Below are positions 2,812-42,803 of a stretch of DNA of 64,000 nucleotides, in pieces. The translations under genes were made by a program, and so were the position numbers. Source of the stretch: an uncultured Thermoplasmatales archaeon (GTDB taxonomy: Archaea; Thermoplasmatota; SW-10-69-26); NCBI GenBank assembly GCA_964581775.1, contig CAZOQA010000005.1, positions 52 through 64,051 on the forward strand, in the 5' to 3' direction. A model generated the notes under the pieces. That model was not told where the DNA came from. It saw only the letters and a program-made list of their open reading frames with translations, and ran no database searches. Each line of letters begins with the position of its first letter. Position 1 is the stretch's first letter.

Positions 2812-3007
2812 GGGACCCCCTCGGTCCGGAAGGCAGCCCTTAACCGTTACCGAACGCACCTCGCTTATCGACGAAGCTTCCCGGCGCGAGGGTTCGGCGC
2901 GCGTCACGGGGCCTTGACGGTGGAAAGGCCCCGCCTAAGCCCTGGGAGCCGTTGTTCCGGTCCCCTCCTGCCTCAAGGTTCCCAAGGCCTCGGCCCTCCT
3001 CGCGGCC

Positions 3008-3286
3008 ATGGACGCTGTGCAAGCGACCAGCCTCGCCGAGTGCATCGAGCACCGTCTCGGGGCGACCGAGTCGGGGCGCGTAGAGGCCTTCGCTATCCCC
3101 CGGCGGAAAGCCTCCACGCGCCGCTCGACGCGATGGTGCTTTCTGATCGTCACGAACCTGCCCGAGGACCACGTCCGGGACACGCTTCGGGAGATGACGC
3201 TCGAGGTCACCGAGCGACGAGGACCGTTCCTCGTCTTCGTGGCCTGGCCGGACCAATCCAGACGCTTATACGGGGCCACGACGTAA
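3008..3286 (+). CDS. Hypothetical protein (92 aa)
   Basis: Fills the gap between flanking genes in operon-like spacing. Confidence 0.5.
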   Translation: MDAVQATSLAECIEHRLGATESGRVEAFAIPRRKASTRRSTRWCFLIVTNLPEDHVRDTLREMTLEVTERRGPFLVFVAWPDQSRRLYGATT

Positions 3287-3293
3287 CTAGGGG

Positions 3294-3575
3294 GTGATGG
3301 GCGCAATCACGAAGCGGATCACGGGAGTCTTCGACGCCCTCGCGACGGGCTTCACGGTGGGAGAACGGTTGTCCAAGGGCGAGAACCTCCAAGCCGTGGG
3401 CCTGGGCTTGGCCCTCGCCGCCCCGCTTTTGTGGCGCCGACGCTACTGGTCCCTGGCCGGAGCCCTCGGCATGGCGGCTGTCGCGTACCTGTTCTGGGAA
3501 GAGTTCCACGAGCAGGAGCCCGTGCTTGAGGAGGAACCCGCCCCCTCCGCCCCGGCCGATCCTCGCGTGAACTAA
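3294..3575 (+). CDS. Small membrane protein
   Basis: GGGGTG ribosome-binding site upstream; two hydrophobic segments and an acidic tail. Confidence 0.6.
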   Translation: MMGAITKRITGVFDALATGFTVGERLSKGENLQAVGLGLALAAPLLWRRRYWSLAGALGMAAVAYLFWEEFHEQEPVLEEEPAPSAPADPRVN

Positions 3576-3742
3576 GCTCGCTTCCCGAGCAGCGCGGCCC
3601 CCTGGGCGTAACCGGAAGACTATTCGTGAGAAGCGCATCCATGCTGCAGATGCCTACAAAACGCCCGAGTCAACGACCCGGACGAGGCCTGATGAGCGCT
3701 CGGGCCCCCCCGAGAACACGCGAACACTGAGGAGGCAACCAG

Positions 3743-6819: not shown

Positions 6820-9225
6820 TCAGTCGTCGTCGAGCCCGTGCATGGCGACGAGGTCCGGTTCGAAAGGGGCAAGCTCTTTGGGCACGTCGACGCCCTCGAT
6901 GGGGCTTCCCAGCGAGATGCCCTGGTCCTTCTTCTCGGCCCAGACATCGCTGTTGAACTCGGTGACGGCGTCGGTGAGCTTGACCAGGCCTTCATCGGCC
7001 TCGTCGAGGGGGCCTGGGAAGCCTTGCCGGTGGACGTTCTCGCCGTGCAGCGCGTCGTAGAGGCGGTACGTGACGACCGGCGTGAGGGGTGCCAATAGCT
7101 CGATGACGCCCTTGATCACGTCGTGCAGGGTCCGGATGGTGCCCCAGTCGTCGTCGTAGGCGCGGGGCTTGACCATCTCGAGGTAGTGCGGCGCGAACAG
7201 GTTCCACACGAAGTCGCGCAGGTTGTTGGCGGGGCGGAAGAAGTCGAACTCCTCGTACCCGGCCAGGCACTCCTCGCGCAGGCGGTTGAACTCGGCGCGG
7301 ATCCACCGGTTCGCGGGCGCCATCTGTTCCTCGCCCTCGGGCTCGGGCACCTCGAACATGGAGAGGAACCGGGCCACGTTGTAGAGCTTCGTGATGAACT
7401 TGCGGGAGCCTGCGATGCGGTCCTCGCTGATGCGGTAGTCGTCCCCGATGGTGCACTCGCTTGCGATCCAGAAGCGGAACGCGTCCGCGCCGTGCTCTTC
7501 GAGCACCTCTTGAGGCTCGATCACGTTGCCCAGGGACTTGCTCATCTTGCGGCCGTGCTCGTCCATGCCCAGGCCCGTGATCCACACGTGCTCGAACGGT
7601 TCGCTGTCCTCCAAAAGCCGGGACTTGAGCGCGGTGTAGTACAGCCAGGTGCGCACGATGTCTCGGCCTTGGGGCCGGACCGAGCAGGGGAAGTTCTCCT
7701 CGAAGAAGGCCTCCTGCTCGTCGTCGTGCCAGCCGAGGATGAAGAGGTTGGATTGGCTGGAGTCCATCCACGTATCGAAGACCTTCCGTTCGCCCTGGAC
7801 CTCGAGGTCGGGGTTCTCCTCGAGCACCTCGTCCAGGCGGCCGATCTCCTCGCGCGTGGCCCGGTCGTACACGCGCGCGTCCTCGGGCGGGTCCTCCTTC
7901 CAGGGCCGGTAGTAGTCCCCGGCCGGGGGAAGCACCACGCGGTCCGGTTCGTCCTCCTCGACGAGGTACCAGAGGGGGATCTCGGTGTGGTAGTACCGAC
8001 GCCGGGAGACGGGCCAGTCGATGCTGACCGTGTCGATCCAGTCCAACAAGAGCGTGCGGTGCTTGTCGGGGTGGAAGTCCATCTCGTGGGCGACCTCCCG
8101 CAGCTCGTCCAGCACGCCGGTTTGCTCGATGTACCATTCCTTGAGCAGCACGACCTCGACCGGCGCCTGGGAACGCTCGCTGATGGGGAAGGTCTGCTGC
8201 ACCTGCTCGGTGCGCGTGATGCGCCCTCTCGACGCGAGGTCCTCTTTGATCTGCCCGCGAGCCTTTTCGACCTTGAGACCGGCGTAGGGGCCGGCCGCGT
8301 CCGTCATCTCGCCGTTCGTGTCGATGGCCTTGACGGGCTCGAGCTCGAGCTCGCGGAACAGCTGCACGTCGCTTTGATCCCCGTACGAGCACACCATCAT
8401 GGTGCCGGTGCCGAACTCGGGGTCCACGTGCGGGTGGGCGCGAATCTCGACGCTTCGCTCGTAGAAGGGCAGCTGGGCCTGCTCGCCGACGAGATGTTGG
8501 TAGCGGTCGTCGTCGGGGTTCACGAGCACGGCCTGGCAGGCACAGATCAGCTCGGGGCGCGTGGTCGCGATCTCGAGCGTGTCCTGGGTCCCTTGCACGT
8601 TCCATTCCACGTAGACGAGGTCCGCGTGCCGTTCCTCGTGGAAGACCTCGGCGTCCGCGATGGTGGTGCCCAGCTCGGGGTCGTAGTTGTTGGGTCGGAG
8701 CTCCTCGACGATGTGCCCGTTCTGGAAGAGCTCGATGAACCCCGCTTGCGTCATGGCTCGGAACTCGGGGTCGTCGGTCTGGTACTTGTTCTCGAAGTCG
8801 CAGCTCATCGCGACGCGTCGGGCGGTCTCCTCGAGTTCCTCGGTGACCTCGTCGATGGCTGAGCGGCATTCCTCGAGGAAAGCTTCGCGGTCCCAGTCCT
8901 CGAGCTTCTTGCCGCTTTCCTTCTCGACGACCTGCTCGATGTTGATGCCGTTGCGGTCCACGCCCCAGGGGAAAAGGACCTTCTCCCCCATCATGCGCCT
9001 CGAGCGCGCGATCACGTCGATCAGGGAGTACTGCGCCACGGCTCCGATGTGCCAGGTCCCGCTCGGGTAGGGCGGGGGCGTGTCGATGGCGAAGACCTCG
9101 GTCCCCTGTTCCCGGTCTTCGCGCGTGACGTGGTCGACGGGCTCCTCGAGCAGCGTTCCCAGGGTCTCGCGCTCGAGCTCAACGTCCCACGCCTTCTCCT
9201 CGATCGTCGGGGGGCGCCTCGGCAT
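6820..9225 (-). CDS. valS: Valine--tRNA ligase (archaeal type)
   Basis: IDTPPPYPSG.WHIGA (HIGH-like), KMSKS, DTWMDS, QGRDI.RTW. Confidence 0.95.
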   Translation of the reverse strand: MPRRPPTIEEKAWDVELERETLGTLLEEPVDHVTREDREQGTEVFAIDTPPPYPSGTWHIGAVAQYSLIDVIARSRRMMGEKVLFPWGVDRNGINIEQVVEKESGKKLEDWDREAFLEECRSAIDEVTEELEETARRVAMSCDFENKYQTDDPEFRAMTQAGFIELFQNGHIVEELRPNNYDPELGTTIADAEVFHEERHADLVYVEWNVQGTQDTLEIATTRPELICACQAVLVNPDDDRYQHLVGEQAQLPFYERSVEIRAHPHVDPEFGTGTMMVCSYGDQSDVQLFRELELEPVKAIDTNGEMTDAAGPYAGLKVEKARGQIKEDLASRGRITRTEQVQQTFPISERSQAPVEVVLLKEWYIEQTGVLDELREVAHEMDFHPDKHRTLLLDWIDTVSIDWPVSRRRYYHTEIPLWYLVEEDEPDRVVLPPAGDYYRPWKEDPPEDARVYDRATREEIGRLDEVLEENPDLEVQGERKVFDTWMDSSQSNLFILGWHDDEQEAFFEENFPCSVRPQGRDIVRTWLYYTALKSRLLEDSEPFEHVWITGLGMDEHGRKMSKSLGNVIEPQEVLEEHGADAFRFWIASECTIGDDYRISEDRIAGSRKFITKLYNVARFLSMFEVPEPEGEEQMAPANRWIRAEFNRLREECLAGYEEFDFFRPANNLRDFVWNLFAPHYLEMVKPRAYDDDWGTIRTLHDVIKGVIELLAPLTPVVTYRLYDALHGENVHRQGFPGPLDEADEGLVKLTDAVTEFNSDVWAEKKDQGISLGSPIEGVDVPKELAPFEPDLVAMHGLDDD

Positions 9226-9354: not shown

Positions 9355-11334
9355 GTGCGACCTCTCGAGACGGGAACGCTTGCCCTCGCGCTCGCCGCGG
9401 TCCTGGTCCTCGTGATGGCGCCCCCCAGCGCGGCCCACCACGACGCGGAAAACGCGCCCGAGCCCGACGCTGGCCCCGAGCTCGTGCTCGAGCACGGCGA
9501 GAACACCACCTGGCGGGATGTCGCGTTCGACCCGACCACCGACGAGGCCGTGCTGGTCGGCGACCGTGCCGCGGAGGACGGTCCGCGCGACGTGGTCGCC
9601 ACGTGGGCCCCCCAAGCGGGGCTCGAGATCGTCCTGGACCGACCCGGATCCGGGCTCGTGGACGTGAGCGTCGACGAGGAGGGGCGACACCTGATCGTGG
9701 GCTTGCACGATACGATCCTGCTCGGCGAGCCCGGGGACTACCGGAACGTCTGGAACGAGAGCGAGTTCTCCCAAGCCGACGAAGGGTACACGTTCTACGG
9801 GCTCAACGGCGCCTTCGAGCCGGGTCACGGGCACGCCGTCCTCGCCGGGTCCAGCCTGCTACGCATGGACCCCGACGGGTCCCTGGAGACCCTTCACGGA
9901 GGCCAGAACGCGTTCTTCCGCACGCTCGACTGGAACCCGCGCGCCTCGAACCTCCTCGTGGAAGCAGCCGTCGAAGAAGACCAACAACGAGCCTGCGAAG
10001 GCACGAGCCCCCCCACCCTGTTCGGGACGCTCTGGCGGACCGACGGCATCCCGCCCTCCCAGGGAACCGGCGGGCTGGAGAACGTGGCCCTGTACGGGAA
10101 CAAGGAGCCCGGGTGCGGTCTCGCCAACGCGATCGCGCACGCCCCCAACGGGACGTTCGCGCTCGCCGCAGGACGCGACGACCAAGGCGCGTCCCTGTAC
10201 ACGTGGGCCGCGGATCGCCCCGACGACGACGCCTGGCGCTACCAGCCCACGGAGAAGCCGGAAGGCCCCATCACGTGCATCGCCTGGCACCCCACGGGAC
10301 GCTACGCCGTCACCACGGGCCTCGACCAGGATGTGGTGGGCCTGGCCAGCGATCGCGCCTGGGCGCCCCTTCTGCACCAGGGACCCAACCTGCACGGGTG
10401 CGCGATGCACCCGCAGGGGGACTACGCGTTGGGCGTGGGCGAACAGGGAGCCCTCGTGATGGTCCCCCACGAGACGGGGCCAGTCGTCACGGTGGCCCAC
10501 CCAGGCCCCGGCTCCCTGGTCGCGCCCCAAGAGGAACAACGGTTCCTGCTGGACCTGATCGACCGGGGAGGAGCAGGCAACGCGACCCTCACGGGCACCC
10601 TGGACGGTACGGATGGGATGCACGAGGCGTTCCTGACGCCCCCGTGGTGGGAGCTACGCGTGGACACGCGCAACCTCTCCGAGGGGTTGCACACGCTCGA
10701 GGTCACAGCCCACACCGACGCTGGCGAGAGCACGATCACGCACCCATTCCTGGTGAACGCGGACCGGTTCACGCCCGAGACGCCGCGGATCCAAGACCCC
10801 GAAGGGCTAGACGGCCAAGGCTTGTCCACGACGGGCACGTTCACGATCCGATGGCAACCCCTGGATGCGCCGCTGCACTACCAGGTACGCCAAGAGCACA
10901 CCGGCCAACAAACCAACGCGACGCGCATCCTGGACGCCGGCGACGCGGACGAGCTGACCGTGGACATCAACCAGGAGGGCACGTACGCCTTCAGCGTGCG
11001 CTCCGTGAACGCGTTCAACTCGAGCCCGTGGAGCTCGAACGTGGTCGTGAACGTCGCCTTCGACGAGCAGGGCCCCCAACGCGGGGACGGGGACTTCCGA
11101 ACGTGCTCAAGCCCCAGCGAAACCTCCGACGTCTCCTGGCGGGAATGCGTGCTCGGCATCGATCGTGACGACGACGCGGACACGGACGGTGGTGGGGGAT
11201 CTAGCGGGGAAGACGATGGCGGGGGACCTGACGGGGAAGACGATGGCGGGGACGAGGGCCATCCCGTACCGGGGCCTGGGCTGGTGGCGTTGGTCATCGC
11301 TTCGACCTTCGGGGCCTTGATCCGACGCGGTTGA
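9355..11334 (+). CDS. Cell-surface protein: signal peptide, 7-blade beta-propeller, Ig/FN3 domains, acidic linker, VPGPG-TM-RRG anchor
   Basis: Seven repeats of type hydrophobic-x-W/F/H-x-P (VAFDP, VSVD, AFEP, LDWNP, IAHAP, IAWHP, CAMHP); FN3-like YAFSVRSVNAFNSSPWS; C-terminus PVPGPGLVALVIASTFGALIRRG. Confidence 0.8.
   Translation: MRPLETGTLALALAAVLVLVMAPPSAAHHDAENAPEPDAGPELVLEHGENTTWRDVAFDPTTDEAVLVGDRAAEDGPRDVVATWAPQAGLEIVLDRPGSGLVDVSVDEEGRHLIVGLHDTILLGEPGDYRNVWNESEFSQADEGYTFYGLNGAFEPGHGHAVLAGSSLLRMDPDGSLETLHGGQNAFFRTLDWNPRASNLLVEAAVEEDQQRACEGTSPPTLFGTLWRTDGIPPSQGTGGLENVALYGNKEPGCGLANAIAHAPNGTFALAAGRDDQGASLYTWAADRPDDDAWRYQPTEKPEGPITCIAWHPTGRYAVTTGLDQDVVGLASDRAWAPLLHQGPNLHGCAMHPQGDYALGVGEQGALVMVPHETGPVVTVAHPGPGSLVAPQEEQRFLLDLIDRGGAGNATLTGTLDGTDGMHEAFLTPPWWELRVDTRNLSEGLHTLEVTAHTDAGESTITHPFLVNADRFTPETPRIQDPEGLDGQGLSTTGTFTIRWQPLDAPLHYQVRQEHTGQQTNATRILDAGDADELTVDINQEGTYAFSVRSVNAFNSSPWSSNVVVNVAFDEQGPQRGDGDFRTCSSPSETSDVSWRECVLGIDRDDDADTDGGGGSSGEDDGGGPDGEDDGGDEGHPVPGPGLVALVIASTFGALIRRG
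11205..11251 (+). repeat. 20-bp direct repeat (27-bp period) encoding a GEDDGG acidic linker
   Basis: CGGGGAAGACGATGGCGGGG at 11205-11224 and 11232-11251. Confidence 0.8.
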
Positions 11335-15587: not shown

Positions 15588-15773
15588 TCACGACTTCCGG
15601 AGGTAGGGAAGGCCGGTCGATTCGTTGACCCCGACCTCGTACCCGTCTGGAAGCTCCGTCTTCTCCCCGGACTTCGGTTTCCCTTTGGAGAAGAAATAGA
15701 TCGTTTGCGTCCCACCGTTCTTCAGATCCACGTCCCGTTCATAGAGCGTGTAGCCATTGTGTTTGTACGGCAT
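15588..15773 (-). CDS. Small conserved-looking 61-aa hypothetical protein
   Basis: MPYKHNGYTLYERDV...TIYFFSK...LPDGYEVGVNESTGLPYLRKS; GGGTG RBS and an AT-rich promoter upstream. Confidence 0.75.
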   Translation of the reverse strand: MPYKHNGYTLYERDVDLKNGGTQTIYFFSKGKPKSGEKTELPDGYEVGVNESTGLPYLRKS

Positions 15774-15819
15774 CCCTGGCACCCGACGAGAGGATGGAGA
15801 ACGGGGGCAAGAAGGTTCC

Positions 15820-15842
15820 GCTTTAAATTGTACATAAATACC
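15820..15842 (-). promoter_or_regulatory. AT-rich TATA-like promoter of the 61-aa gene
   Basis: TATTTATGTACAATTTAAAG on the minus strand, standing out from the GC-rich context. Confidence 0.55.
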
Positions 15843-15983
15843 CAATCCTCCCTGGATAGCTGCCAAGGTGGCCAAGCCGGCCGGTCCGGCGTGGCGGGCT
15901 GGGTGCGGGAGGGCACGCATGGATGGGAGCCAATTAAAAAGGCGAACGTTCTTGGCGAGGCAAATGGAGGCCGGCCCTGAACG

Positions 15984-21022: not shown

Positions 21023-21087
21023 CCCAGCCCGACCCTCTCGTCCCGTTACGCACTTAAGCACCAGGGCCATGTCGTGGCGAGCCCCGC

Positions 21088-23991
21088 ATGTCCTCGTCCC
21101 AGCAGGACCTCGACCTCGACGCCATCGAACGACGCTGGCAAGACACCTGGCAAGAGCGAAACCTGCACGAGGCAGAACCCCGAGACGGGGAGGACTCGTT
21201 CTTCGTCACCTACCCCTACTCCTACATGAACGCGTTCGCGCACGTGGGCCACGCCTACACGATGCTGCGAAGCGACATGATGGCCCGCTACCAGCGCATG
21301 CAGGGCAAGAACGTGCTCTTCCCCTTCGCCTACCACGTCACCGGAACCCCCATCGTCGCGGCAGCCAACCGCATCCGCGAAGGGGAAGAATCGCAGATCC
21401 AGCAGCTGCTCGACCAAGGCATCCCCCAGGAGAAGGTCGAATCGTTCGCGGACCCCATGAAATGGATCGACTACTTCCCCGAGCAATGGCGCCAAGACGC
21501 CGACCGGCTCGGCCTCATGATCGACTGGCGCCGCCAGTTCCACACCACGGACATCAACCCCTTCTACGACGCGTTCATCCGCTGGCAGTTCCGACGCCTC
21601 AAAGACAAGGGCCTCGTCCGGCGAGGCGAGCACCCCGTCGTCTGGGACCCCGACGCTGAGAGCGTGCTCAGCGACCACGACCGCATGGAAGGCGAAGGGG
21701 CCACGCCGCAGGAGTTCACGCTCATCAAGCTCCGCGACGAAGAGGACCCCCAGCGCGTCTTCGTCGCCGCCACGCTTCGCCCCGAGACCATGTTCGGGCA
21801 GACCAACGTATGGGTCCACCCCGAGGAGACCTACACCGAGATCCGCGTGGGGGCCGAGCGCTGGGTCGTCGCCCAAGAGGCCGCCCACAAGTTCGAGCAC
21901 CAGTTCGATGACGTCGAGGAGACCGACGTGACGCTCGAGGGAGCCACCCTGGTCGGTCAGCACGTCAGCGCGCCCGCGACCGACCGAACCATCCCCGTGC
22001 TCCCCGCTGCGTTCGTGAGCGCGGAGACCGGCACGGGCGTCGTCACGAGCGTTCCCAGCGACGCGCCTGACGACCACCAGGCGCTTTTGGACCTGCAAGG
22101 CGACGTGGACGCGTTGGAGGCGTACGGGTTGGACCCGAACGAGGTGGGCTCGATCGAGCCCATCGCGATCATCGAGACGCCTGGACTGGGAGACCTGGCT
22201 GCGCCGGCGATCCTGGACGAGATGGGGATCGAAAGCCAGCAGGAGCGCGAGGCCCTCGAAGAGGCCACGGACGAGGTGTACCGGCGTGGGTTCTACGAGG
22301 GCACCATGAAGGAGGAGCTTGCGCGTGTGGGCGGGATGCCCGTGCAGAAGGCCAAAGAGGAGGTTCAAGCGTGGCTGGTCGAGGAGGGCGACGCGGAGCT
22401 CTTCTACGATCTGACCGAGCCCGTGATCGCGCGATCGTTGACGCAAGCCGTGGTCAAGATCGTGGACGACCAGTGGTTCATGGCGTACGGGGACGAGGAC
22501 TGGAAACGCGAGGTCCGCAGGGCCCTTGACGAGGTCGTCACGCTGTACCCTGAGAAGGTGCGCTCCCAGTTCGAGCACGTCGTGGACTGGCTCAACGACT
22601 GGGCCTGCACGCGCGCGACCGGGCTGGGCACCAAGCTCCCCTGGGACGAACAGTGGATCATCGAGTCCCTTTCGGACTCCACCATCTACATGGCGTACTA
22701 CACGATCGCGCACCTGCTCGAGGAGGAGGACATCGACCCAAGCGACGTACGCGATAACGATGCGGCCTTCGACTACGTGTTCCTGGGGGAGGGCGAACCG
22801 GGGCAAGCCGCGCAGGGGACCTTGACGCGGGAGCTTCTGGAGCGCATGCGCCAGGAGTTCACGCACTGGTACCCGGTGGACTTCCGCAACAGCGGCAAGG
22901 ATCTGGTCCAGAACCATCTCACGTTCATGGTGTACAACCACGTGGCCCTGTTCGACGAGGAGCACTGGCCGCGTGGGCTCAGCGTGAACGGGTGGGTCAC
23001 GATCGGGGGCGAGAAGATGAGCAAGTCCAAGGGCAACTTCATCACGCTGCGGGACGCCCTGGACGAGCACGGGGCCACCGTCACGCGGCTGGCCTTGGCC
23101 AACGCGGGGGAAGGGCTGGACGATGCCAACTTCGACCCCGAGTTCGCGCGCACCGCGTACGGCCGGATCGAGGCCTGGTTCGCCACCGTTACGCAAGCCC
23201 CTGACCAGGCCCGCGAGGGGGAGAAGGGAAGCGCCGAGCTGTGGTTCGAGGCGCGCATGGCGGAGCTGCTCGACGAAGCGAGCAGCGCGTACGACGGGGC
23301 TCGGTTCCGCTCGGCCTTGAAGGCTTGTTTTTTCGACCTCACGGCGGCCTGGAACCGGTACGTGCGCCGGTGCCTGGGCGAGCCTCATCGGGACACGTGG
23401 GAACGCTTCTCGACCGTGGCGATCCGGGCCATGGCGCCCATCCTCCCGCACCTGGCCAGCGAGGCCTGGCGCGAACGCGAGGAGGGCATGGTCATCGATG
23501 CCCCGTTCCCCGAGCCGGAGCGGCCCGAGGGGGCCGTGGAGGCCTTGGCCGCGGAAGAGCTCGTGGTCCAGGTGCTCGAGGACACGCGGGATATCCTGCA
23601 AGCCACGGGGGAAGAGCCCCAGACGGTGCGCGTGTTCACGGCCCCCCCGTGGAAGCGGACCGTCGTCGACGAGGCGCTGCACCTCAAGCAGAAGGACGAG
23701 CTGGACCCGGGCACGCTGACCTCTCGGGTGATGCAGGAGGACGCGGTCAAGCAGCAGGGCGGGGACGCGGCCCGCTTTGCGAAGGACACGGCCATGAAGC
23801 TCGAGCGCGCACCTGAGCCCACGCTCGTCGAGGATGAGGCCTCCGTCCTCGAGGCGGCGATCGGGTTCTTGGAGGAGCAGCTGGGATGCCCGGTTGAGGT
23901 GCACCCGGCTCAGAGCGCGGAGGCCGTCGAGCACGGGGGCAAGGCCGAGCGAGCCGAGCCCGGGCGCCCGGGCATCTTCATCCAGTCGTGA
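21088..23991 (+). CDS. leuS: Leucine--tRNA ligase (archaeal type)
   Basis: YPYSYMNAFAHVGH, ATLRPET, SLSDSTIYMAYY, GKDLVQNHL, KMSKSKGN, KAERAEPGRPGI. Confidence 0.96.
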   Translation: MSSSQQDLDLDAIERRWQDTWQERNLHEAEPRDGEDSFFVTYPYSYMNAFAHVGHAYTMLRSDMMARYQRMQGKNVLFPFAYHVTGTPIVAAANRIREGEESQIQQLLDQGIPQEKVESFADPMKWIDYFPEQWRQDADRLGLMIDWRRQFHTTDINPFYDAFIRWQFRRLKDKGLVRRGEHPVVWDPDAESVLSDHDRMEGEGATPQEFTLIKLRDEEDPQRVFVAATLRPETMFGQTNVWVHPEETYTEIRVGAERWVVAQEAAHKFEHQFDDVEETDVTLEGATLVGQHVSAPATDRTIPVLPAAFVSAETGTGVVTSVPSDAPDDHQALLDLQGDVDALEAYGLDPNEVGSIEPIAIIETPGLGDLAAPAILDEMGIESQQEREALEEATDEVYRRGFYEGTMKEELARVGGMPVQKAKEEVQAWLVEEGDAELFYDLTEPVIARSLTQAVVKIVDDQWFMAYGDEDWKREVRRALDEVVTLYPEKVRSQFEHVVDWLNDWACTRATGLGTKLPWDEQWIIESLSDSTIYMAYYTIAHLLEEEDIDPSDVRDNDAAFDYVFLGEGEPGQAAQGTLTRELLERMRQEFTHWYPVDFRNSGKDLVQNHLTFMVYNHVALFDEEHWPRGLSVNGWVTIGGEKMSKSKGNFITLRDALDEHGATVTRLALANAGEGLDDANFDPEFARTAYGRIEAWFATVTQAPDQAREGEKGSAELWFEARMAELLDEASSAYDGARFRSALKACFFDLTAAWNRYVRRCLGEPHRDTWERFSTVAIRAMAPILPHLASEAWREREEGMVIDAPFPEPERPEGAVEALAAEELVVQVLEDTRDILQATGEEPQTVRVFTAPPWKRTVVDEALHLKQKDELDPGTLTSRVMQEDAVKQQGGDAARFAKDTAMKLERAPEPTLVEDEASVLEAAIGFLEEQLGCPVEVHPAQSAEAVEHGGKAERAEPGRPGIFIQS

Positions 23992-24003
23992 GAGGACGCA
24001 CCG

Positions 24004-24561
24004 ATGGACGTGATGGGATCCCCGTTGCCGGACTGGGCACGCCACATCGTGGAGCCTGGCGAGCGCGTCGGGGACGACGTGGGCGGGTTGGACGCGGCCA
24101 TCGATTTGGCGGTGGCCAGCGCGGAGCAGGGCGGGGGCCCGTTCGGGGTCCTCGTCGCGGACGCGGACGGGCGCGTGGTGAGCCTGGGGTGGAACCGCGT
24201 GATCGAGGCCACGGACTCGACCGCGCACGCGGAGATCGAGGCCCTGCGCGCGGCCCAGCTTCGCGTGGGCACGCACGATCTCTCCCAGCCTGAGCGGGCG
24301 CCGTTGTCGATGTTCGCGAGCTGCGCGCCGTGCGTGATGTGCTTTGGAGCGATCTACTGGAGCGGCATCGCGCGCGTGGTGTCGGCGGCCAGCGCGGCGC
24401 ACGCGGAGGCGCTGGGTTTCGATGAGGGGCCCGTGACGGAGGCGATGTGGCGGGCGGCCAAGGAGGACAAGGGCATCGAGTACGAGCCGGACGGTCCCGC
24501 GCGCAGGGACCCGGAGGCCCCGTTCGATCTTTACCGGGAGAAGGGCGGCGTGATCTACTAG
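24004..24561 (+). CDS. Nucleoside/guanine deaminase family protein
   Basis: GGPFG, DSTAHAEI, SCAPCVMCFGAIYWSGI Zn-deaminase motif. Confidence 0.88.
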   Translation: MDVMGSPLPDWARHIVEPGERVGDDVGGLDAAIDLAVASAEQGGGPFGVLVADADGRVVSLGWNRVIEATDSTAHAEIEALRAAQLRVGTHDLSQPERAPLSMFASCAPCVMCFGAIYWSGIARVVSAASAAHAEALGFDEGPVTEAMWRAAKEDKGIEYEPDGPARRDPEAPFDLYREKGGVIY

Positions 24562-24659
24562 GTCGAGGGTCGGGCTCGTTGGGGGGACCAAGCGTTCGGT
24601 ACGCTGGCATGAGCAGCGCTGAAGGCTCCTCAAGTAGGCCGGGAAGGGAATCAGGCGCG

Positions 24660-40932: not shown

Positions 40933-41262
40933 GTGGTCGAGTGCTGGATCGCGTGGACGTTCATCCTCGCCGCAAACGCGGTGGGGTGGTGGGCGATCCG
41001 CCACGACAAGAAGGCGGCGCGGTCTCGGGGCAAGGGGTATCGGTCCAGCCCCCGGCGCCGGATCCCGGAGCGCTGGTTTTGGGCGGTGGCGTTCTTCGGG
41101 GGTTTCGTGGCGATGATGGTCGCGATGGGTCGCTACCGGCACAAGACGCGCAAGCTGTCCTTCCAGATCCCGTTCTTCGTGGCAGCGTTCGTGTCCTCGC
41201 TCGTGTGGGCGGGGTGGTTGTCCGTGCTGAGCTGTTTCCCGTTCGCTTCTCTTCTAGCCTAG
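40933..41262 (+). CDS. DUF1294 family membrane protein
   Basis: DKKAA, RIPERW...AFFGG...AM..YRHKTRK..F. Confidence 0.85.
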   Translation: MVECWIAWTFILAANAVGWWAIRHDKKAARSRGKGYRSSPRRRIPERWFWAVAFFGGFVAMMVAMGRYRHKTRKLSFQIPFFVAAFVSSLVWAGWLSVLSCFPFASLLA

Positions 41263-41306
41263 GGTTGGCCAGGTGGGAGGGATCCGCCAGCAAGCGCCGG
41301 CGGGGT

Positions 41307-41314
41307 AAGAAAAA
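41307..41314 (-). terminator. Oligo-U archaeal terminator of the candidate sRNA
   Basis: TTTTTCTT on the minus strand, 6 nt after the closing stem. Confidence 0.55.
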
Positions 41315-41414
41315 GGGGGCGCGAACAACGCAAGGGACGAAGGGTGTGTGACGAGGTGTTGCCGAACCTTGGTGTTGCGTTGCCGAACCGAGCGACCGCA
41401 GGCGTTGTTCGCAC
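41307..41414 (-). ncRNA. Candidate novel small RNA (~100 nt) with 11-bp terminal stem and two internal GGUUCGGCAAC repeats
   Basis: Perfect inverted repeat 41321-41331/41402-41412; direct repeats 41358-41368 and 41379-41389; BRE/TATA upstream and U-tract downstream; no convincing ORF. Confidence 0.6.
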
Positions 41415-41433
41415 AACCACCGTTCCCGGGGGG

Positions 41434-41450
41434 TATAAAAACGTTTATCG
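41434..41450 (-). promoter_or_regulatory. BRE plus TATA box for the candidate sRNA
   Basis: CGATAAACG-TTTTTATA on the minus strand; spacing predicts a start at about 41409-41412. Confidence 0.65.
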
Positions 41451-41501
41451 TGACGCGGGCTTCGCGTCCTGGTACAAGCCTTGACCAGCGGGCCCGGCCG
41501 G

Positions 41502-42227
41502 TCACTTGGTCTTGCGGATGTACACGGGGCTTGGACCTTGATCGCGCTCTCGGCGGACCTCGAAGAGATCGTCGTTGGCTTCGATGAGGTCGAGAAGCTT
41601 GTCGGCCCCATACTCGCGCAGATCGAAGCTGGAGTCCAGCTGGCGCAGCATGTCCCCGAGCGCGCCCAGCTCGGCCCACCCGTCGTCGCCTTCGGTGAGT
41701 TCATAGGCGCGGGTGAGCAGTTGGCGGGCTTTCTCCAGGCCTTCGACGCCCTGGCTGGACCCGGAGGTGGTGGCGGTAAGGTTGCGGGGGTCCACGAAGA
41801 GGTTCGTGGCGCGGATGAGCGGGCTTGCGGTGCGTTCCTTGTTCCCGATGACCATCACGAACTTGCCGGCCTCGCGCAGCCGCATGACCAGGTGCGTGTA
41901 GTCGCTGTCGCTTGAGATGATGCAGAACGCGTCGACGTTCCCGCTGTAGAGGATGTCCATCGCGTCGATGATAAGCGATGCGTCCGTGCTGTTCTTCCCG
42001 GCCACGAAGCTGGAGGTCTGGATGGGCTGGAGGGCGTACTCGTGCATGACCTTGTCCCAGCCGTTCATGTGGTCCTTGCCCCAGTCCCCGTAGACGCGGC
42101 GGATGGTCGGGATGCCGTGACGTCCCACCTCTTCGAGCATCTCTTTGATGAGGGCGGGTTGGGCGTTGTCGCCGTCGACGAGGACGGCGAAGGTCTCACG
42201 GTCTTGGAACGCATCGGGTTCGCTCAT
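41502..42227 (-). CDS. NYN-domain RNase with C-terminal OST-HTH/LOTUS domain (LabA/DUF88)
   Basis: AVLVDGDN, RRVYGDW, GKNSTD..LIIDAMD, SSDSDY; LOTUS-like WAELGALG..L...DSSFD..YG..KL.DL. Confidence 0.92.
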   Translation of the reverse strand: MSEPDAFQDRETFAVLVDGDNAQPALIKEMLEEVGRHGIPTIRRVYGDWGKDHMNGWDKVMHEYALQPIQTSSFVAGKNSTDASLIIDAMDILYSGNVDAFCIISSDSDYTHLVMRLREAGKFVMVIGNKERTASPLIRATNLFVDPRNLTATTSGSSQGVEGLEKARQLLTRAYELTEGDDGWAELGALGDMLRQLDSSFDLREYGADKLLDLIEANDDLFEVRRERDQGPSPVYIRKTK

Positions 42228-42311
42228 GGCGACGGGCCTTGAGCAAGGATTCGGTTGCATCGCATAAGGGGTTACCCCTTCTATCGGGGCACGCCGTGGC
42301 ACGGGCAGCGT

Positions 42312-42803
42312 CTATCCCTGCCGGGGGTTGCGGCCCCAGGCCTCGTCGAGCCGGTGACACACCACGGTCCCCTCCGTGAGCAGGTTCCCTTCTGGGTCCT
42401 GGACCTCGACATCGACGTGGACGCGTCGCCCGTCGACGCGCTCGACGGTGGAGACCAGGCGGACCGGGTCCTCGATCGGGGCAGGCGCCCTGAACGTGGT
42501 CTCGAGCTTGGCCGTGACGTAGTGCGGGACCGGGTCCTCCCCCTTCGCGATGGCCCGCCAAGTCGCCGTCCAGATGCCGTGACAATCCACGAGCGTGGAC
42601 TGCGGGCCGCCTCCGAGCACGCCCGCGCTTCCCGCGTGCTGCTGTTCCCCCTGGTACTCGGCGACGAGGCCCATCTCGCCGTCGCCCGGGTACGATTTCA
42701 ACCGGAACCCCTCCGGGTTGTGCGGCCCACACCCGAAACACAGGTTCTCGTGCTCCATCATGTCCTGCACGGCGGTCTCGTCCTCGCGCTCGATGGCGGG
42801 CAT
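42312..42803 (-). CDS. PaaI/hotdog-fold thioesterase family protein
   Basis: CFGCGPHNPEG, VLGGG..STLVDCH, VTAKLETTFRAP. Confidence 0.85.
   Translation of the reverse strand: MPAIEREDETAVQDMMEHENLCFGCGPHNPEGFRLKSYPGDGEMGLVAEYQGEQQHAGSAGVLGGGPQSTLVDCHGIWTATWRAIAKGEDPVPHYVTAKLETTFRAPAPIEDPVRLVSTVERVDGRRVHVDVEVQDPEGNLLTEGTVVCHRLDEAWGRNPRQG

Follow-up and report, generated by a model that had tools for sequence, protein, structure and literature searches.

We analysed a 64-kb stretch (66% G+C) of contig CAZOQA010000005.1 from an uncultured Thermoplasmatales archaeon, hereafter the window, and found that the intergenic region between two convergent genes, one for a protein with NYN and OST-HTH/LOTUS domains (41502-42227, minus strand; NYN-LOTUS below) and one for a DUF1294 protein (40933-41262, plus strand), probably contains a new small RNA gene. 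Its product would carry two identical single-stranded sites for an RNA-binding protein, and as far as the databases reach the gene is restricted to one clade. An initial annotation of this DNA had proposed that the minus strand encodes an undescribed, independently promoted, structured archaeal non-coding RNA about 100 nt long, and that proposal was supported by the results below: the element was conserved in seven lineages, had no Rfam match, and contained no conserved reading frame. Judging from the sequence comparisons, the element is most likely the founding example of a new, clade-restricted small RNA family. The features of the candidate gene and its surroundings, with all element coordinates on the minus strand, were as follows.

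41465-41450, minus strand: conserved upstream block GCGAAGCCCGCGTCAC; conservation started abruptly here, after an unconserved stretch 3' of the NYN stop codon (alignment A1).
41449-41442, minus strand: A-rich sequence GATAAACG resembling a B recognition element (BRE); part of the putative promoter.
41441-41434, minus strand: TATA box TTTTTATA; part of the putative promoter.
41426-41420, minus strand: G(G)ACGG box, GGAACGG in the window, about 10 nt upstream of the predicted start.
41414-41402, minus strand: 5' arm of the closing helix P1, GUGCGAACAACGC (repeat search and alignment).
41389-41379, minus strand: first motif copy M1, GGUUCGGCAAC (repeat search and alignment).
41368-41358, minus strand: second motif copy M2, GGUUCGGCAAC (repeat search and alignment).
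41356-41336, minus strand: pyrimidine-rich segment with a second motif, CCUCGUC at 41356-41350 and CUUCGUC at 41342-41336 (alignment).
41331-41319, minus strand: 3' arm of the closing helix P1, GCGUUGUUCGCGC (repeat search and alignment).
41318-41307, minus strand: C/U tract CCCCUUUUUCUU, likely an archaeal oligo-U termination signal.
41302-41285, minus strand: G+C-rich hairpin just past the C/U tract (−16.7 kcal/mol, z = −3.5).
41502-42227, minus strand: upstream neighbour, NYN (PIN-like RNase) plus OST-HTH/LOTUS, 241 aa (Pfam NYN 2e-30, OST-HTH 3e-13).

The BRE/TATA sequence, the stem, the duplicated motif, the pyrimidine segment and the C5U5 run were each found by sequence reading and a repeat search where the initial annotation had placed them on the minus strand. 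The core of the stem was a perfect 11-bp duplex of GCGAACAACGC (41412-41402) with GCGTTGTTCGC (41331-41321), two arms that were 100% complementary and lay 70 nt apart, and one U-G and one G-C pair lengthened it to 13 bp. A direct-repeat search returned GGTTCGGCAAC at 41389-41379 and again at 41368-41358, confirming the two exact motif copies with a start-to-start spacing of 21 nt. The pyrimidine-rich 3' half was followed by a C5 T5 C TT run at 41319-41307. CAAC had been noted four times in this region, and the count was correct, but the conserved repeat was the full GGUUCGGCAAC(AC) together with CUCGUC rather than CAAC as such. From the positions of these features the RNA is predicted to be about 100 nt long, or about 130 nt if the G+C-rich hairpin, which may be part of its 3' end, is counted.

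Related loci were gathered through orthologues of the NYN protein and of DUF1294, and the element was located in them by blastn, by alignment, and with a covariance model (R1), which gave scores of 74-118 bits. It was present in seven lineages of one high-G+C, Thermoplasmatota-related archaeal clade.

Lineage 1: the window.
Lineage 2: L145 (NCBI GCA_964391285.1).
Lineage 3: L139, L140 and L144.
Lineage 4: L146-L148.
Lineage 5: L001-L006.
Lineage 6: L011-L013 (NCBI GCA_964396185.1).
Lineage 7: L138, promoter only, as the contig ends inside the promoter.

The closest relatives of the AspRS encoded in the window were found on metagenomic contigs only (74-87% identity), metagenome-assembled genomes (MAGs) labelled 'Candidatus Thermoplasmatota archaeon' reached at most 61%, and AspRS identity among the element-bearing lineages went down to 74%. 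In every lineage bearing it, the element lay downstream of the NYN-LOTUS gene and on the same strand. The gene on its other side was a convergent DUF1294 gene in the window, L001 and L139, a convergent abhydrolase gene in L145 and L146, and a same-strand NikR_C gene in L011. With the covariance model no further copy was found in the window or the related loci (198 kb in total) except for a local tandem duplicate in L146-L148, where two copies lay 3' of the NYN gene (L146:2739-3607) with a gene of 140 aa between them (2988-3410, minus strand) that had no Pfam or NCBIfam match. The distal copy (L146B, 2739-2853) was intact; the NYN-proximal copy (L146A, 3503-3607) had a mutated box, TTCTCCTA, as well as one mismatch in a motif and one in the stem, and for these reasons it looks like a decaying duplicate.

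Conservation was read from an alignment of nine sequences from this one narrow clade (A4). The promoter, the spacing from promoter to stem, the stem itself, and both GGUUCGGCAAC copies were conserved across lineages, and the same was true of the upstream block, the GACGG box, the CUCGUC motif and the C/U tract. The GACGG box occupied the same position in all lineages (reading GACAG in L139 and AACGG in the window), CUCGUC was found once or twice in every lineage, and the pyrimidine tract was likewise at the same position in all of them. The strongest conservation was seen in the duplicated motif. Its core, GUUCGGCAAC, was exact in 17 of 18 copies; the M2 core was invariant in all nine sequences, and M1 was identical in every intact copy, with a single mismatch only in the degenerate paralogue L146A. 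A hairpin after the C/U tract was present in seven of seven lineages, with differing sequence. Variable parts were the sequence joining the 5' arm to M1, the length of the pyrimidine segment, and the spacer between M1 and M2, which gave a motif period of 21, 19, 18, 17 or 14 nt depending on the lineage; the stretch from the NYN stop codon to the upstream block (48-247 nt) was not conserved. Compared with L001, L011 and L139, the RNA in the window had an identity of 0.77, 0.74 and 0.82, respectively; identity at third codon positions of the adjacent NYN gene in the same comparisons was 0.75, 0.62 and 0.68.

The promoter-like box was the sole part of the element that was unusual within the window itself, where AAACNNTTTTNTA occurred once as compared to 0.09 expected. 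A/T-rich octamers are rare in this DNA, with 26 sites in 64 kb at 66% G+C, and at least seven such boxes preceded the start codons of long open reading frames (ORFs) by 22-28 nt, the distance being taken between the last base of the box and the first of the start codon. We concluded from this placement that the genome uses TATA boxes with leaderless starts. The box of aspS, ATATATAA, preceded its start codon by 24 nt and that of valS (6820-9225, minus strand; NCBIfam valS), TTTTATAA, by 25 nt, in keeping with the spacing on which the transcription start of the candidate had originally been placed; applying spacing of this type puts the predicted start inside the 5' arm of P1, at its foot (41412-41406). 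The distance from the box to the TGCG of the stem was constant, being 20 nt in all full copies except for 19 in L011, and the box itself was conserved in all full copies. On the minus strand the box was preceded by an A-rich, BRE-like flank; on the plus strand the flank was GGGGGG. The candidate is thereby predicted to have what marks an independent archaeal small RNA gene, namely its own BRE/TATA at the right distance from the 5' end. Five or six A/T-rich octamers, among them TTTAAATT at 15822 and AATTAAAA at 15932, were also clustered at 15691-15940 of the window. No long ORF obviously begins at the distance from them expected of a promoter, and the cluster may mark a further intergenic region, with orphan promoters, or some other non-coding feature.

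The closing helix P1 spanned 15 columns of the alignment, and its 10-bp core was paired in 88 of 90 cells. Over the helix as aligned, 85.7% of cells were paired, a value that fell to 26-50% once the 3' partner was slid by one to three columns. Substitutions of A by G on the 5' arm produced G-U pairs at four columns (L146A and L146B; L011; L146A and L146B; L139 and L140), a C-to-U change on the 3' arm produced another G-U pair in L011, the L001 clade had one compensatory double change from A-U to G-C, and in L145 and L146 additional G-C pairs extended the helix inwards. Read on the plus strand, the G-U changes would give C-A mismatches, and the stem changes therefore fit an RNA from the minus strand only. 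The result was a continuous duplex of 10-13 bp without a conserved bulge. Two extensions of this structure were tried and rejected. A conserved inner helix (GACGG with UCGUC, or GGU/ACC mini-hairpins around each motif) was unsupported, being formable in some lineages and not in the window or L011, and its partners showed no covariation among the lineages. A longer outer helix, pairing the GACGG region with the tract past the 3' arm, reached 7+2 bp in L146B only, which was at the chance level, and was rejected also for its incompatibility with the distance from TATA box to start.

Several observations weigh against the interpretation of this element as a small RNA gene, or limit how far it can be pressed. 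The predicted fold of 116 nt (−33.2 kcal/mol) was not significantly more stable than shuffled sequences (z = −1.72), and the motifs were only moderately unpaired in the predictions (P(unpaired) 0.4-0.7). Covariation in the stem, which had been put forward as a check, was obtained in part: the G-U and compensatory changes kept pairing on the minus strand, but the statistics were weak, with a shuffle control reaching the observed value in 44 of 500 trials and only one or two pairs changed on both sides. Because there were nine sequences and all came from one narrow clade, this covariation is suggestive and not significant. The U-run of the C/U tract was weak in the L001 lineage (UUCUUCU). In the window and L139 the first oligo-T past the NYN stop codon was the T5 of the 'TATA' box, which might thus serve as a terminator. 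There was no adjacent copy of the element at the NYN-LOTUS orthologues of L007-L010 (88% identity, followed by RIO1), L014 (70%) and L141 (53%), and the linkage of the element to the NYN gene could be inherited gene order. Taken in the window alone, moreover, none of the repeats nor the fold was by itself beyond chance. Five loci had a perfect inverted repeat of 11 nt or more within 100 nt, with five expected, seven had a direct repeat of 11 nt or more within 30 nt, with 1.6 expected, and the 11-nt motif with at most one mismatch matched twice as compared to 1.9 expected. We therefore judged the element to be real from its conservation in related genomes and not from window statistics.

Comparison of the related loci showed a loop of about 70 nt, closed by the helix and with hardly any conserved structure, in which two identical copies of GGUUCGGCAAC(AC), at a variable distance, precede (AC)CUCGUC, itself present once or twice. 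In the mechanism that we favour, the RNA would be transcribed from its own BRE/TATA promoter, as deduced from its sequence and from the spacing at other promoters in the window. Transcription would start at the foot of the 10-13 bp helix joining the 5' end to a segment near the 3' end, and would stop at the C/U tract or just past the hairpin that follows it. The helix would protect the ends of the RNA and present two identical single-stranded sites to an RNA-binding protein acting as a dimer or as two copies, with the RNA serving as a decoy, scaffold or dedicated substrate. We judged the two-site architecture, as read from the aligned sequences, to be most compatible with a protein that binds twice.

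The main alternative to protein binding keeps the same RNA gene and has it act by base pairing, with GGUUCGGCAAC as a duplicated seed for GUUGCCGAACC-like sites in mRNAs and CUCGUC, which contains CCUC, directed at purine-rich ribosome-binding regions. Invariant single-stranded motifs of 10-14 nt in an otherwise variable loop are typical of small RNA seeds, and the C/U-rich segment is conserved as well. A U-rich single-stranded tract between two stems, moreover, resembles a binding module of the Sm/Hfq type. No convincing complementary site for either motif was found in the 64-kb window, however: the best non-self duplex lay inside an ORF and depended on G-U pairs, and a complement with at most one mismatch occurred only within the element itself. 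Two identical seeds at a variable distance would also be unusual for a pairing RNA, and most genes in the window look leaderless, which leaves few ribosome-binding sites to target. We therefore regard action by base pairing as possible, at a good deal less than even chance. An alternative that dispenses with a separate gene is that the element is a conserved part of the 3' untranslated region (UTR) of the NYN-LOTUS mRNA, or an RNA processed from that region, in which case the A/T box would be a leaky oligo-T terminator. The constant position of the element, downstream of NYN-LOTUS on the same strand, is what this predicts, as is the position of the T5 of the box as first oligo-T past the NYN stop in the window and L139. 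It is improbable nonetheless, given that the distance from stop codon to upstream block ranges from 48 to 247 nt without conservation, that separate T-runs precede the block in L001, that the intact L146 copy lies beyond another gene (140 aa), that the fixed 20-nt spacing from box to stem and the A-rich BRE-like flank are expected of a promoter and not of a terminator, and that the degenerate L146A has lost its box and decays elsewhere too. The corresponding possibility for the other neighbour, a 3' UTR of DUF1294, was ruled out because DUF1294 is not next to the element in L011, L145 and L146.

It is very unlikely that the element acts as DNA, either as two transcription-factor operators (GTT-N4-AAC is partly palindromic), as the terminal repeats of a miniature mobile element, or as a recombination site. 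The core GTTCGGCAAC does have a palindromic outer triplet, inverted repeats of 11-13 bp do flank an insert of about 70 bp, and the element was tandemly duplicated around the 140-aa gene in L146. Opposing this are the variable spacing of 14-21 bp, which breaks helical phasing, the substitutions in the arms, which obey RNA pairing (G-U) on one strand only, and the C/U tract and hairpin, which are conserved on that same strand. The mobile-element version was rejected, as the element was present as one copy at one syntenic position per locus and no other was found in the 64-kb window or the fetched loci (198 kb together) apart from the L146-L148 tandem duplicate. The most improbable explanation is a leaderless micro-protein that starts at a conserved NTG (GTG at 41414) and would begin VRTTPAVARFGN in the window. 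A start codon (GTG, ATG or TTG) was indeed kept in place in every lineage, 20 nt past the TATA box, and the first motif read (R/W)FGN in the NTG frame in six of seven lineages, L011 differing by an in-frame deletion of 3 nt. When the frame was followed from this NTG at the 5' arm in each lineage, the window and L139 gave 51 and 49 aa, but the frame stopped after 13 codons in L146B, directly past M1, and in the well-sampled L001-L006 it was shifted by a 1-nt insertion, the motifs there reading TVRQ and GSAT. M2 was out of the NTG frame in L011, L001 and L146A and yet was identical in nucleotide sequence. Since the motif copies were identical whatever their frame, the constraint must be on the nucleic acid and not on a protein, and this was reinforced by the lack of synonymous variation in 17 of 18 motif copies, even though third positions of the NYN gene were just 62-75% identical. 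The translated frame had no Pfam match, and its 20-nt spacing from the box was shorter than the 22-28 nt of real leaderless genes. Because the reading frames break between lineages, we concluded that the element is not coding, in agreement with the earlier view that it held no convincing ORF.

No known RNA class accounted for the element. A search of Rfam 15 gave no match in the whole window at gathering score, none at E≤10 for 41150-41600, and none in the seven related loci, as the initial annotation had expected. It had also set aside a tRNA or a C/D-box RNA, and correspondingly ARAGORN found no tRNA or tmRNA gene in the window, and neither UGAUGA nor CUGA occurred within the predicted RNA (41414-41307). 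For the H/ACA class, the sequence after the stem was GCCCCCUUUUU and not ACA, again with no Rfam match. The entire 64 kb, in fact, had no detectable tRNA, rRNA or Rfam family, making it a long stretch without a known RNA gene. Searches of the literature on the motif, on small RNAs of Thermoplasmatota, and on NYN-LOTUS proteins with small RNAs found nothing relevant.

In general design the candidate resembles several known RNAs. Like the Y RNAs of bacteria and eukaryotes, YrlA among them, it is about 100 nt long and has a U-rich 3' tail, its 5' and 3' ends would pair in a long stem enclosing a large loop, and its gene adjoins that of a putative protein partner, just as YrlA lies beside the Ro orthologue rsr. 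Here, however, the adjacent genes encode NYN-LOTUS, DUF1294, abhydrolase or NikR_C proteins, with no Ro/TROVE gene nearby, and the RNA has no Rfam Y RNA match, no tRNA-like module in the loop, and no conserved bulged helix for Ro binding. With CsrB/RsmZ (CsrA) and CrcZ (Hfq/Crc) the candidate shares the plan of a small, independently transcribed RNA (the promoter here being a predicted one) in which conservation is highest in short repeated motifs, with spacers of variable length and sequence between them. The known sponges carry many GGA or CA-rich motifs in hairpin loops, whereas this element has only two copies, the minimum for calling a motif repeated, of a long motif of 11-14 nt; its archaeal host has no CsrA, it has no sequence or Rfam similarity to these RNAs, and protein binding is proposed here by analogy. 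The parallels with Y and vault RNAs and with sponge RNAs remain analogies. Intergenic small RNAs have been found by RNA-seq in the cultivated archaea Haloferax, Methanosarcina, Sulfolobus and Pyrobaculum (e.g., PMC3388794). The candidate is like them in its intergenic location and narrow phylogenetic range, and in its own predicted TATA promoter, oligo-T termination and length within 50-200 nt, but it is known only from sequence comparison in uncultured Thermoplasmatota-like genomes, its end-closing helix and duplicated invariant motifs are unusually clear, and no homology to those RNAs was detected.

The leading candidate for a protein partner, from gene order, is the NYN-LOTUS RNase-like protein encoded just upstream. 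Its translation contained the acidic NYN motifs DGDN and SSDSD, and its relatives in the PDB were only two uncharacterised LOTUS-like structures determined by nuclear magnetic resonance. The mechanical ORF list gave this gene a GTG start and 266 aa (41502-42302); the protein on record and all orthologues start at an internal Met (42227), giving 241 aa. As there was no clear TATA box before the start at 42227, the gene may be co-transcribed with the thioesterase-like gene upstream (42312-42803). The combination of NYN and LOTUS domains is the same as that of eukaryotic MARF1, an NYN nuclease with LOTUS domains, and of prokaryotic NYN proteins of the LabA/TIGR00288 type. We know of no dedicated RNA partner for prokaryotic NYN-LOTUS proteins. 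One could imagine that the RNA is dedicated to this MARF1-like, LabA/TIGR00288-type ribonuclease as an inhibitor or decoy, as a guide-like specificity factor, or as a processed substrate, with each GGUUCGGCAAC site read by one subunit of a dimer. We consider this specific pairing doubtful. It is weakened by the NYN lineages that have no adjacent copy, from which it also follows that the protein does not depend on the RNA in cis. LOTUS domains have been reported to bind RNA (PMC7498356), the reported preference being for G-rich or G-quadruplex RNA, in contrast to the C-rich RNA of this element.

The candidate is unusually well defined, with a conserved putative promoter, a terminal helix, two invariant 11-nt motifs, and the constant neighbourhood of an NYN-LOTUS gene of unknown function, all of them open to direct test. 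To our knowledge almost nothing has been learned about regulatory RNAs in the Thermoplasmatota, an abundant and mostly uncultured group of archaea, and very few Rfam families represent them. If the RNA and the NYN-LOTUS protein interact, the RNA would provide a first experimental handle on prokaryotic NYN-LOTUS proteins; were it their dedicated partner, it would be the first RNA ligand for this widespread and uncharacterised family and would define an archaeal gene pair of RNase and RNA. If they do not, the element would be one more lineage-specific small RNA, useful for annotating MAGs and as the seed of a new RNA family, and unsurprising in kind, as lineage-specific small RNA candidates are common. 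In kind it would be a new family of an already familiar class of RNA.

Pattern scans with the duplicated motif returned no relatives of the element. A scan of genome contigs for two GGTTCGGCAAC copies separated by 1-30 nt gave at least 120 unrelated bacterial stretches, mostly coding repeats, with no archaeal homologue among the matches listed; the pattern was too unspecific, and L139 would also have escaped it, as its second motif copy starts with C. The two-copy pattern combined with CGTTGT matched three unrelated low-G+C coding repeats in metagenome contigs, and a scan of viral contigs matched one unrelated phage contig. Two GGTTCGGCAAC copies within 30 nt were common in the unrelated bacteria listed, which included Mycobacterium, Streptomyces and Myxococcales, and a Rubrobacteraceae MAG (L074:448-626) had four tandem motif matches with a 45-nt period. 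Because such bacterial two-copy matches, which presumably are coding repeats, are common, the GGTTCGGCAAC motif alone is not diagnostic of the RNA.

Repeats of other kinds were seen near a distant NYN-LOTUS gene and elsewhere in the window. At L141:5067-5266, 3' of the NYN-LOTUS gene with 53% identity, there was an unrelated direct repeat of 68 nt, present as two copies that were 74% identical and 101 nt apart. It too lay in a convergent intergenic region, which raises the question of whether repeat-containing non-coding elements commonly follow NYN-LOTUS genes. In the window, an exact direct repeat of about 20 nt occurred at a spacing of 27 nt at 11205-11241, and a perfect inverted repeat of 13 nt with a 47-nt spacer was found at 21317-21389, in or beside a very long ORF (21046-24633).

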